Origin: a candidate division WOR-3 bacterium
Lineage (GTDB): Bacteria; Hydrothermota; Tepidihabitantia; SM23-42; JAOAFX01
Length of the DNA stretch: 16,884 nt
NCBI GenBank assembly: GCA_037444665.1
Contig: JBBILZ010000052.1
Span: forward strand, 1-16,884
Direction: 5' to 3'
Made by a program: the position numbers and the translations under genes. Shown here piece by piece: positions 14,214 through 16,884 of this stretch. Numbering within the stretch: position 1 is the stretch's first letter; each line of letters opens with the position of its first letter. Below the pieces are notes generated by a model. That model was not told the origin of the DNA. It worked only from the letters and a program-made list of their open reading frames with translations, and did no database searches.

Positions 14214-15527
14214 CTATAATTTAAGACAATTTTTAATGAGTCTCACGAGAATATTGCCATTCTTTTCTTTTAACTCATAAGTTACTTTTACTGCAGGTTT
14301 ATTTATATTTAAAAATTTCCGTAAATCTACTGGTGTTCCAATAACCACAACATCGGCAGGAGTATTATTAATGCTCTGATTCAATTCCTCTATTTGTTTT
14401 TGTGAATAGCCAAGCGCTGGAATGAGCGGTCCAATTTGGGTATATTTTTCATAAGTTTTTTTTATAGAACCCACCGTATATTTTCTTGGGTCAACAATGC
14501 TTTTTGCATGATATTTTTTTGCTGCGATTACACCTGCACCAAAACTCATTTCACCATGGGTCAATGTTGGACCATCTTCAACAACTACCACTCTCTTGTT
14601 TTTAATGAGTTTAGATTTATCAACGACCACAGGAGAATATGCTTCCAATATGATAGCATTTCGGTTTAGCATTTTTAGATTTTTTTTCATTTTTTGTACA
14701 ATTTTCGGATTTGCTGAATCTACTTTATTAATAATGATAATATCAGCCATGCGCACATTTGCTTCACCTGGATGGTATGTAGATTCATTGCCTGACCTTA
14801 ATGGGTCAACAACAACGATGTGCAAATCTGGTTCATAAAATGGTAAATCATTATTTCCACCATCCCAAACAATCACATCGGATATTTTTTCAGCAGCTTT
14901 CAAAATTTTTTGATAATCAACACCAGCAAATACCGTATTCCCTCGTTTTATATGGGGCTCATACTCTTCCCGCTCTTCAATGGTGCAATTATATTTATCT
15001 AAATCCTGAAGCGTTGAAAATTGTTGGCTCTCCTGCTTTGTTAAATCGCCATAAGGCATCGGGTGTCTGACCACTGAAAACTTAATACCATATTTATTCA
15101 AAATATCACAAACCCTTCTTGTGGTCTGGCTCTTTCCTGCGCCGGTGCGTGCCGCACAAATGGAAATAACCTTTTTACTTGACTTTAAAATTGAAGATTT
15201 AGGTCCCATAAGCCAGAAATCAGCGCCCGCAGCAAGCACTTCAGATGCCTTATGCATAACATACTGGTGTGAAACATCAGAATAAGAAAAGACTACCACA
15301 TCTATTTTAAATTTTTTTATCAAATTAGTCAAATCCTTTTCAGAATAAATGGGGATTCCAGTTGAATAATATGGTCCAGCTAAGTCTGCTGGATACTCTC
15401 TACCTTCAATATTTGGTATCTGGGTAGCTGTAAAACCAATAACCTTATAGTCGTGATTATATTTAAAAAAAGTATTAAAATTATGAAAATCTCTGCCTGC
15501 AGCACCCATAATTATAACCCGTCTCAT
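14214..15527 (-). CDS. COG2403 P-loop ATPase (usually auto-annotated cyclic 2,3-diphosphoglycerate synthase/GTPase); likely arginine synthetase (ArcE-type)
   Basis: Motifs GAAGRDFHNFN, ATQIP.IEGR.YP, P-loop RTGAGKSQT, RHPMPYGDL, EEREEYEPH, WDGGNND and EDGPTLTHG. Strong SD sequence TAAGGAGG. Confidence 0.8.
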   Translation of the reverse strand: MRRVIIMGAAGRDFHNFNTFFKYNHDYKVIGFTATQIPNIEGREYPADLAGPYYSTGIPIYSEKDLTNLIKKFKIDVVVFSYSDVSHQYVMHKASEVLAAGADFWLMGPKSSILKSSKKVISICAARTGAGKSQTTRRVCDILNKYGIKFSVVRHPMPYGDLTKQESQQFSTLQDLDKYNCTIEEREEYEPHIKRGNTVFAGVDYQKILKAAEKISDVIVWDGGNNDLPFYEPDLHIVVVDPLRSGNESTYHPGEANVRMADIIIINKVDSANPKIVQKMKKNLKMLNRNAIILEAYSPVVVDKSKLIKNKRVVVVEDGPTLTHGEMSFGAGVIAAKKYHAKSIVDPRKYTVGSIKKTYEKYTQIGPLIPALGYSQKQIEELNQSINNTPADVVVIGTPVDLRKFLNINKPAVKVTYELKEKNGNILVRLIKNCLKL

Positions 15528-15682
15528 AGAACCTCCTTACTATCTTCCCTTAAACCAGAAAAAAACTGGGCACATAAATAGGCTCTCTATTAAAGCCCTG
15601 ATATCCTTCACTGTTTTCTGTCCAGTGAGTAAAGGCTCCTTGATTAATATGTTTATGTCTATCAGACTTATCCTGGTAGCAT

Positions 15683-15710
15683 ATTATATCCAGATTTAAG
15701 CAAAAGTCAA
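15683..15710 (-). promoter_or_regulatory. Promoter for the ArcE-like/ppdK unit, giving a 5' leader of about 150 nt
   Basis: Minus strand: TTGACT (15710-15705), N16, TATAAT (15688-15683). Confidence 0.75.
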
Positions 15711-15807
15711 TAAGCAGGTAAATCTCCCTATCTTCCCCTGCTATAAAAGGTTTGTCAATATAAAAATTTCCTCTTTACAATCTCCTTTCTATAAATATAA
15801 TTTACTG

Positions 15808-15945
15808 TCCGAACTATACCTAACGGCTAAAACCAGCCTGCTATTCGGTCATTCAAGACCAAGGTATCTGTTCGGAGTGGCTGGGCCGCCTAATCTTTGA
15901 AAGAATCATTTTATGATTAAGGGAGAGAAGAGGCTTACCCAGCCA
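15808..15945 (-). ncRNA. Candidate bridge RNA / seekRNA of the IS110 element
   Basis: Domain 1: stem TGGCTGGG/CCCAGCCA, stem GCCT/AGGC, a 12x12-nt internal loop and hairpin AATCAT-AAA-ATGATT. Domain 2: stems TCCGAAC/GTTCGGA and ATACCT/AGGTAT enclosing hairpins GGTC/GACC and GGCT/AGCC. It sits directly downstream of an IS110 recombinase gene. Confidence 0.62.
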
Positions 15946-16600
15946 TTCTTCTTTTTGTCATACAACTAACATAATCCATTTGCCACTGCAACATCTGATA
16001 AACGATCGTAGCAATCTTTCGTGCTAAAGCCACCCTGGCTACACCCATCCCTTTATTCTTTACAATCCGGCGATAATAAAGCCGTAATACCGAATCCAAA
16101 TCCTGAGATTTAACCGCTGCCGTCGCTACCTCTATATAAGCATACTTCGAATACACATTTGCCTGCTTGCAAAGATGCCCATTCCAATATTTACCCCCAC
16201 TTCCGTATGTCCGAGGCACTAACCCCGCATAGGCAACATAACGCTTAGCAGAAGGAAACCGCTCAATCGGACCTGTCTCGTAAAGAATCGTCAACGCCCA
16301 AATCTTACCCACACCAGGCACCGTCAAAAGCCTTTGTGCCTCCCCAGACAAAACTACCTGCTCTTGAATCCTCTTATCCCAATCATTAATCTGAACCGTC
16401 AAAGCATCAATAATCGTAAGAAAATTCTTTATGATTGCATCATAAGGCATACCCAATGATACCCCCGCTAAAAACTCACGGCCAGACCCACCCCAGATAT
16501 TAGTATAAGGAAAAGTAATATTGAACTTTCCCAGAATACTCCGAATAATGTTCTTACAAACCACCCGCATCCTTACTAATCTGGCACGAACGCGAAACAT
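15935..16600 (-). pseudogene. IS110-family transposase/recombinase, C-terminal fragment (coiled-coil plus Transposase_20 domain); the N-terminal RuvC-like DEDD domain is missing
   Basis: Motifs R..LVRMR...KN.I.SIL, LLTVPGVG, ETGPIERFPSAK, YAGLVP..YGSGG (catalytic Ser) and VARVALARK. Only 221 aa remain, and the upstream DNA belongs to another element. Confidence 0.88.
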
Positions 16601-16634
16601 ATTGTCGTATCAATAGACATCCTCCTAATGATTA

Positions 16635-16662
16635 TTGACAGCTTTGGCTATAAAGATATAAT
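16635..16662 (+). promoter_or_regulatory. Consensus promoter inside the second IS
   Basis: TTGACA (16635-16640), N16, TATAAT (16657-16662), followed by SD GGAGG (16673-16677). Confidence 0.75.
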
Positions 16663-16682
16663 TACAATGATTGGAGGTTCTC

Positions 16683-16884
16683 TTGAAAAACAAATGGATA
16701 AAATGGATGTTTAAGAAGATTGAAGAAGCAAAAAAGAGATACGAGCATCTTGAAAAACGAAAAATTAAGAGGGAGTTGCTTAAGAAGCATCGCGCTGATA
16801 TTGAAAGAAGGTTAGCATGGATTAACTACTATTATAAATTGTTAGACCAAGGGAATAAGGCAGCCAAGACGATGGTCTGCAATA
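16683..16884 (+). CDS. Partial ORF running off the window; probable N-terminus of an HTH-containing transposase (IS481-like)
   Basis: TTG start after GGAGG; translates MKNKWIKWMFKKIEEAKKRYEHLEKRKIKRELLKKHRADIERRLAWINYYYKLLDQGNKAAKTMVCN with no stop. The RRL.W..YY......N....C pattern resembles the lead-in to transposase HTH domains. Not in the supplied ORF track. Confidence 0.6.
   Translation, partial: MKNKWIKWMFKKIEEAKKRYEHLEKRKIKRELLKKHRADIERRLAWINYYYKLLDQGNKAAKTMVCN

Follow-up and report, generated by a model that had tools for sequence, protein, structure and literature searches.

A putative guide RNA gene beside a truncated IS1111-type transposase gene in a candidate division WOR-3 bacterium

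In a 16,884-nt stretch of DNA from a candidate division WOR-3 bacterium (hereafter the window), a transposase gene of the IS110 family is followed on its 3′ side by a non-coding region for which two nested stem-loop domains had been drawn by eye. This raises the question of whether the region encodes a guide RNA (seekRNA or bridge RNA), as the original prediction proposed, and, if so, which of its segments would read the target and which the ends of the element itself. The fold, loops that follow the flanks, a copy of the donor end within the RNA and a promoter formed by the joined ends all agree with that proposal. We consider it very likely that the folded region is the guide RNA gene of an IS1111-type element, carried on the transposase strand. 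The anatomy of the element, the covarying structure, the deduced guide code and the junction promoter are demonstrated by sequence comparison, and the predicted RNA is a divergent addition to the recently described class of IS1111-type guide RNAs. Coordinates are collected in Table 1.

Table 1. Features of the element remnant, its putative guide RNA gene and their surroundings (minus is the strand of the transposase gene)
Feature	Positions	Strand	Basis
Right half of target, REP-like palindromic repeat unit	15715..15737	-	related uninterrupted units elsewhere in the genome
Core dinucleotide AG and right end (last base 15738)	15738..15739	-	homolog divergence; run X1 unitig boundary at 15737
Right subterminal inverted repeat TTGACAAACCTTTT, containing TTGACA	15745..15758	-	homolog alignment
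Promoter-like site TTTACA-16-TATAAT (11/12), pointing into the putative guide RNA gene	15774..15801	+	promoter scan
Conserved AAUUAUAU motif, candidate right-donor guide	15795..15802	-	complement of left-end TATAAT; 3′ of domain 2
Domain 2, putative donor-binding multiloop (three-way junction)	15809..15875	-	closing stem P1, stem P2, hairpin A, short hairpin B
Putative left-donor guide AUAGCAGG	15837..15844	-	same sense as right end + core AG + first flank base
Domain 1, putatively target-binding	15879..15944	-	fold and RNAalifold; outer stem, GCCU/AGGC stem, 12x12 internal loop, apical hairpin
Putative left-target guide UUUCAAAGAU, 3′ side of loop	15893..15902	-	same sense as left flank + AG + first two left-end bases
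Putative right-target guide UUCUCUCCCU, 5′ side of loop	15920..15929	-	complementary to top strand, core AG + right flank
IS110-family (IS1111-type) transposase gene, 3′ remnant, 221 aa	15935..16600	-	PF02371 and GLVPRTYGSG
IS481-family element, left end, interrupting the transposase gene	16600..16884	+	second copy on C90; NF033577; rve domains

The transposase gene and the ends of the element

The 221-aa open reading frame has a single domain match, to the C-terminal domain PF02371 (E 2.4e-18). Against the model NF033542, 'IS110 family RNA-guided transposase', it scores 147.1 bits (cut-off 140) over positions 127-339 of 343 only, compared to 231.5 bits over positions 1-340 for a complete homolog (L009), in which PF01548 is also found (E 2.4e-17). 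As judged by the domain search of the open reading frame, the N-terminal DEDD (RuvC-like) domain is absent from the window copy; no catalytic domain is recovered here because the copy is truncated. The serine motif GLVPRTYGSG can be read in the translation and fits the GL-P----S(t)G motif which, together with subterminal inverted repeats of 7-17 bp, characterizes the IS1111 family in the published description considered here (Siddiquee et al. 2024, PMC11187229). Transposases of the complete homologs are 355-361 aa long, against 330-350 aa given for the family in that description. We therefore assign positions 15738-16600 (minus strand), with high confidence, to an IS110-family element of the IS1111 type, of which they represent the 3′ two-thirds.

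The interruption is due to a second insertion sequence. A second copy of the repeat starting at about 16600 lies on contig C90 of this genome (L002, 11-1553), where it carries a 391-aa transposase assigned to the IS481 family by a match to NF033577 (224.7 bits) and by rve domains. In contigs of sequencing run X1, probably the source sample, several further flanks are attached to the repeat at 16600-16603, and its depth is 62, compared to 16 for the unique flank. The IS481-family element has its own promoter, with 12 of 12 consensus positions, at 16635-16662. Its insertion cost the IS110-type copy its left end as well as the catalytic DEDD domain; this copy is dead in cis. Searches of the assembled genome of this bacterium found neither an N-terminal DEDD domain of the window lineage nor a left end; thus what the window holds is a 3′ remnant. 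Nor did searches of that genome, including one with a covariance model of the RNA whose only match was the window copy, find a second copy of the element. The sole PF01548 match of the genome belongs to an unrelated copy on contig C59 (C59:1173-4430, L003), a complete IS110-family gene of 408 aa with both domains. An IS110-family fragment also lies at the end of contig C6 (C6:63891-64067, L005).

A search for related loci across the genome contigs returned one locus only, and homologs were taken from genome searches. Matches to the 221-aa query were found in 8 of 16 genomes of the taxonomic family (E <= 1e-10), matches to an alignment of three proteins in 30 of 272 genomes of the phylum (E <= 1e-40), and matches to the covariance model of the RNA in 10 of 49 genomes of the order (E <= 0.001). 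The lineage had been described as poorly sampled, a fair statement given that the best plasmid-borne relatives of the transposase are 33-34% identical and that the 8 longer homologous proteins obtained from a big collection are 29-35% identical, too distant to help.

Within the close clade of 11 homologs, the 3′ non-coding region is conserved as far as ...TTGACAAACCTTTTATAGCAG and diverges completely beyond it. This sets the right end of the window element at 15738, in keeping with the earlier placement of the end near 15737-15745, and gives a downstream non-coding region of 197 nt from the stop codon to the right end. At the other side, the left non-coding end of L009 spans about 63 nt from core to ATG (counted by eye). 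Left ends were obtained from 6 homologs, each reading flank, AG, then ATATAAT(A)AAAGGTTTGTCAA, and the AG core is common to both junctions of the complete homologs. The subterminal inverted repeat is 14 nt long, with AAAAGGTTTGTCAA on the left (L036, L045) matching the right arm; the window keeps only the right arm, and the left one turns up in a run X1 contig. The TTGACA of the right arm (15753-15758, minus strand) provides the -35 half of a junction promoter. When right and left ends are joined at AG, TTGACA and TATAAT come to lie 16 or 17 nt apart, with 12 of 12 consensus positions in all 6 complete homologs. This agrees with the earlier view that the outward-facing TTGACA would form a promoter on circularisation.

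Fold, covariation and strand of the non-coding region

The 145-nt segment taken after the open reading frame (15803-15947, minus strand) folds at -59.6 kcal/mol, compared to a mean of -35.7 for shuffled sequences (z = -6.19; 0 of 200 shuffles were as low). The two domains drawn by eye are found at the positions described, and the computed fold contains both the 12x12 internal loop of domain 1 (CTTCTCTCCCTT / CTTTCAAAGATT), capped by an apical hairpin AAUCAU/AUGAUU, and the three-way junction of domain 2. Rfam covariance models run against 15400-16884 gave only two chance-level matches (E 4.3 and 5.9).

RNAalifold on 13 sequences recovered domain 1 and hairpin A of domain 2, with 10 of 21 predicted pairs kept through two-sided changes. 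Of domain 2, only hairpin A was obtained since the registers of the closing stem shift in some homologs. A two-domain structure, hand-written from the window fold and from inspection of homologs, was therefore counted on 10 sequences. Standard pairs are formed in 92.6% of 378 cells and two-sided changes occur in 13 of 38 pairs, counts which overstate independence, the homologs being related MAG sequences with several junctions orthologous or in similar repeats. None of 500 shuffles reached these values, and sliding the 3′ partners by 1-3 columns reduced pairing to 18-40%. Pairing is complete or nearly so in helices 1 and 2 of domain 1 (97.5% and 100% of cells paired, 7 pairs changed on both sides) and in hairpin A (100% paired, two fully compensatory pairs, UA/GC/CG). 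Helix 4 of domain 2 (85%) and hairpin B (87.5%) are paired to a lesser extent; hairpin B is supported mainly by two invariant G-C pairs, and the register of the closing stem is shifted in L021 and L023. The stems are thus conserved and covary among homologs, as would be expected if the proposal were correct.

A conserved structure at this place could also be a mere 3′ UTR, acting as a terminator-like stabiliser of the transposase mRNA, with matches to flanks and ends arising by chance or from target-site bias. The transposase stop codon (15935-15937) indeed falls within the first stem, the outer stem of domain 1. However, the stems are not followed by a T run, and a scan of 15738-15947 found no terminator on the minus strand. 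Further evidence on this reading comes from the loops, as described below.

Folding energy alone cannot choose the strand, the value for the opposite strand being nearly as extreme (z = -5.82). Among the paired cells, 32 are G.U, which pair on the transposase strand only, compared to 13 A.C, which would pair on the other strand only; U.G occupies one pair in all 10 sequences and a second pair in 8 of them. This excess favours the transposase strand, where the published IS1111 seekRNAs also lie in the descriptions compared here (PMC11187229).

The opposite strand nevertheless has a promoter-like site of its own pointing into the putative guide RNA gene, and a functional transcript could start there, either as the true guide or as a regulator. 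Ten of 11 homologs have such a site, matching at least 10 of 12 consensus positions, in the equivalent location 32-40 nt from the right end. Moreover, the guide logic is mirror-symmetric, so that base-pairing with flanks does not by itself exclude such a transcript. It is at odds, however, with the fixed-position G.U pairs and with the strand of the published seekRNAs, and the wobbles formed between the right-target guide and DNA would become A.C mismatches. In addition, a sense-strand element is another possible reading of these motifs. On balance, a functional transcript from the opposite strand appears very unlikely. Because an antisense regulator could coexist with a sense guide, the two readings compete only over which RNA is the guide. 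Keeping the transposase strand for the guide, one might speculate that the conserved inward promoter yields an RNA antisense to the long guide RNA, serving as a brake or as a processing partner.

The letters of this promoter-like site have other possible readings. The AAUUAUAU motif doubles as its -10. Its -35 and spacer coincide with a start-stop pair at 15775-15786 (minus strand), consisting of a Shine-Dalgarno-like AGGAG(G), 0-7 nt, ATG or TTG, then TAA, which is present in 10 of 11 homologs.

Candidate target and donor guides

Among elements, the stems of domain 1 are constant but the internal loop varies on its 5′ side. In a fixed register, this putative right-target guide is the reverse complement of the core AG and the next seven bases of the right flank. 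For the window copy, RNA UUCUCUCC-CU faces DNA AG-GGGAAGA, contiguous from the junction, with 7 Watson-Crick pairs and 1 G.U of 9 positions, and one mismatch. It had been proposed that the pyrimidine-rich TCTCCCT and TCTTC of this loop are complementary to the purine-rich flank. The complementarity is real, but the register was wrong: the homologs support the contiguous one.

Taking one representative for each of 8 target classes, loops scored against their own flanks gave 65 of 72 Watson-Crick pairs. Among all 40,320 permutations of flanks to loops (mean 38.6), only the true one reached 65. When all 16 junctions were considered, 14 had at least 7 of 9 Watson-Crick pairs (L025 scored 8), although several are orthologous or in similar repeats and hence are not 16 independent events. 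The remaining two, L071 (6) and L074 (3), fit neither the right-target guide nor position 8 of the donor guide. A looser statistic, the longest complementary run between loops and flanks with G.U allowed, gave no separation (self 8.2, shuffled loops 6.2, non-self 4.8). It is uninformative because loops rich in pyrimidines pair with flanks rich in purines whatever their order, and it was replaced by the fixed-register Watson-Crick test.

The 3′ side of the loop would read the other flank. Identity of the putative left-target guide to left flank, core and start of the left end is 9-10 of 11 in all 6 elements with a left end, which represent three distinct target classes only. Loop sequences thus follow the flanks on both sides, as the original prediction had it. 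From the left guide (C)UUUCAAAGAU of the window copy, a left junction TTTCAA-AG-AT would be expected; the window does not include it. In a run X1 contig, ...CCCTCTCCCTTTTTCAAAGATATA stands before the inverted-repeat arm from 15743; this is a left end whose flank agrees with the prediction (10 of 11 positions). The predicted junction, TTTTCAAAG followed by ATATA, corresponds there to a flank ...CCCTTTTTCAAAG followed by ATATA.

These results bear on the 3′ UTR reading introduced above. It gains something from the flanks being low-complexity purine runs and from the failure of the loose G.U-run statistic to separate self from shuffled loops. Against it stand the fixed-register score, reached by the true pairing alone, the variable loop bases that change along with the flanks on constant stems, and the left flank predicted from the guide and then encountered in the sample contigs. 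A mere 3′ UTR is therefore extremely unlikely, and we retain the guide RNA gene as the explanation for these loops.

The left-target guide ends with AU (15893-15894), the first two left-end bases. Bottom-strand guides thus run past the core and match integrated junctions. Whether this matters for the element is a separate and equally speculative point: core-crossing guides of this kind might read integrated junctions and so serve excision.

The target of the window element is a REP-like palindrome, CCCTTTTTCAA-AG-GGG. A pattern requiring both guides (left half, AG, and right half with G.U allowed) had a single match in the 2.5-Mb genome, on contig C33 (C33:26309, minus strand), and the reversed control had 0. 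This empty site is a unit of a palindromic repeat family (CCCTTT..AAAGGG, then a G-rich tail ..TAGGG..), other units of which lie at C10:44004, C14:45370, C16:32952, C25:32415(-), C70:4501 and C80:2877(-). Since the C33 unit matches the guides and the right flank in the window is the right half of another unit, the target would be REP-like, as it is for many IS110/IS1111 elements. The left flank in the run X1 contig is one base off the C33 unit, a difference which hints at an insertion absent from the assembled genome.

Other run X1 data point in the same direction. The unitig 15737-16576 has a depth of 22.3, against 16 in the flanking sequence. Position 15737 is also joined to other flanks, and a contig of 3,157 nt continues past 16602. 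A second right flank joined at 15737 is missing from the assembled genome and is not matched by the guide. These observations suggest that a further copy, perhaps intact, is present in the sample but missing from the assembled genome. It could be imagined, then, that the remnant still produces its guide RNA and supplies it in trans to an intact copy elsewhere in the population, as the run X1 data suggest one or more additional copies in which the guide region is identical. On the other hand, the promoter scan saw no minus-strand promoter within 15947-16884, and the assembled genome is without a second copy and without the N-terminal domain of the lineage. Furthermore, in the published account considered here, IS1111 guides are reported as transcribed from the junction promoter of the circle, which the window copy cannot form (PMC11187229). 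Activity in trans is thus unlikely, and the window copy is best regarded as a dead remnant, with no functional consequence other than as a marker of a REP-like target site directly upstream of a promoter. The latter is a promoter-like TTGACT-16-TATAAT (11 of 12 consensus positions) at 15683-15710 (minus strand), in the flank just past the right end. It points at a 437-aa CobW-domain gene (14214-15527), so the element landed immediately upstream of the likely promoter of this gene.

Recognition of the donor would involve domain 2. The minus-strand segment ATAGCAGG at 15837-15844 is, as had been noticed, repeated exactly at the right end (15737-15744); the whole window has 3 matches, against 0.41 expected. 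The proposed donor assignment of this segment is strengthened by the homologs, in every close one of which AUAGCAG in domain 2 is identical to right end plus core. At 12 of 16 junctions, the base that follows AUAGCAG (15837 in the window) is the one with which the right flank begins, and G, T and A all occur among these matches. The segment had been described as largely single-stranded. This holds in part: four of its bases (UAGC) pair with GUUA in the minimum-energy fold of the window, a pairing which is lost in homologs.

A search for the right-donor guide did not locate it with confidence. The sole recurrent complement of the left end is ATTATA, 3′ of domain 2, which is found in 3 of 6 elements (L009, L022, L045); a fourth element matches with a shift. 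As judged by eye, the multiloop of a neighbouring clade (L027, L029) has a 5′ strand that could pair with the left end, which is not so in the window clade.

Relation to known guide RNAs and to other clades

By analogy with the published IS1111 and IS621 mechanisms, the element would excise as a circle, in which the right-end TTGACA and the left-end TATAAT would form a promoter driving a transcript of transposase gene plus guide. The guide RNA would begin within the last transposase codons, on the same strand, and the transcript would be processed to a short and a long RNA. The transposase would then bind the RNA and recombine the circle with a target at AG.

We compared the features of the window family with those published for the IS1111 seekRNAs of ISEc11, ISPa11 and ISKpn4 (PMC11187229). 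As in the accounts compared here, the non-coding region lies downstream of the transposase gene, and a guide complementary to the top strand stands 5′ of a bottom-strand one, the two overlapping at the insertion point. Two guide segments in one internal loop, directed at opposite target strands and overlapping at the core, are a feature of seekRNAs and bridge RNAs alike. Subterminal inverted repeats, a junction promoter and the GL-P----SG motif are also common to the window family and these IS1111 elements, and a REP-like target is shared with ISPa11. Domain 1, which would correspond to the short seekRNA, is about 66 nt long, against 70-100 nt for the published short forms, and domains 1 and 2 together about 140 nt, against 145-170 nt for the long forms. 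The three-way junction of domain 2 had been taken for a variant donor-loop architecture. This view cannot be kept, as a multiloop donor domain of this kind was already described for many IS1111 orthologues, in the part of that study considered here (Durrant et al. 2024, PMC11208160).

The IS621 bridge RNA (PMC11208160, PMC11208158) resembles the RNA predicted here in having a target and a donor domain, target guides that include the core, and a dinucleotide core; in both, left guides are directed at the bottom strand and right guides at the top strand. In contrast to IS621, the RNA lies 3′ and not 5′ of the transposase gene, the loop has its guides in the opposite order, the core is AG and not CT, and the donor guide is located in a multiloop instead of an internal loop. 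The bases that cross the core are carried here by the bottom-strand guides (left-target guide +2, left-donor guide +1), whereas the handshake guides of IS621 adjoin the right-target and right-donor guides.

ISPpu9 and MITEPpu9 of Pseudomonas putida share an AG crossover and REP targets with the window family, as far as their published description was compared (PMC12288879). That description reports no hybrid junction promoter for ISPpu9, in contrast to the perfect one found in 6 of 6 complete homologs here; it also reports that the Ssr9 RNA of ISPpu9 is not needed for transposition. Derivatives that lack the transposase gene and keep a downstream small-RNA region are found both as MITEPpu9, in the same description, and in the relative genome G008. 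The inward promoter-like site, the putative core-crossing guides and the transposase-less derivatives go beyond the published IS1111 descriptions compared here.

Taken together, these comparisons add a divergent and well-defined IS1111-type family of predicted guide RNAs, from uncultured subsurface and sediment bacteria, in which natural reprogramming would have produced at least 8 target classes among 16 junctions. Its guide code appears readable (core AG, with right and left guides of about 9 nt each), and the family offers comparative material for the less-studied IS1111 branch, including donor recognition by a multiloop.

Genome G008 holds at least 3 copies of a short transposase-less derivative (L070, L077, L079). 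Each consists of the last ~60 nt of the transposase gene, a complete guide RNA region and the right end, with a shared palindromic repeat in front, and each lies in a TGGAGAG-type flank that fits its own guide.

The same plan is seen in distant IS110-family clades of the phylum (L027-L035; L033/L034/L037; L038-L044), whose ends read ...CATAGGTGAC, ...CATAGAAG and ...TTTCAAAGAAG. In each of them, as judged by eye, the second RNA domain contains a copy of the right end and the 3′ side of loop 1 corresponds to the left flank.
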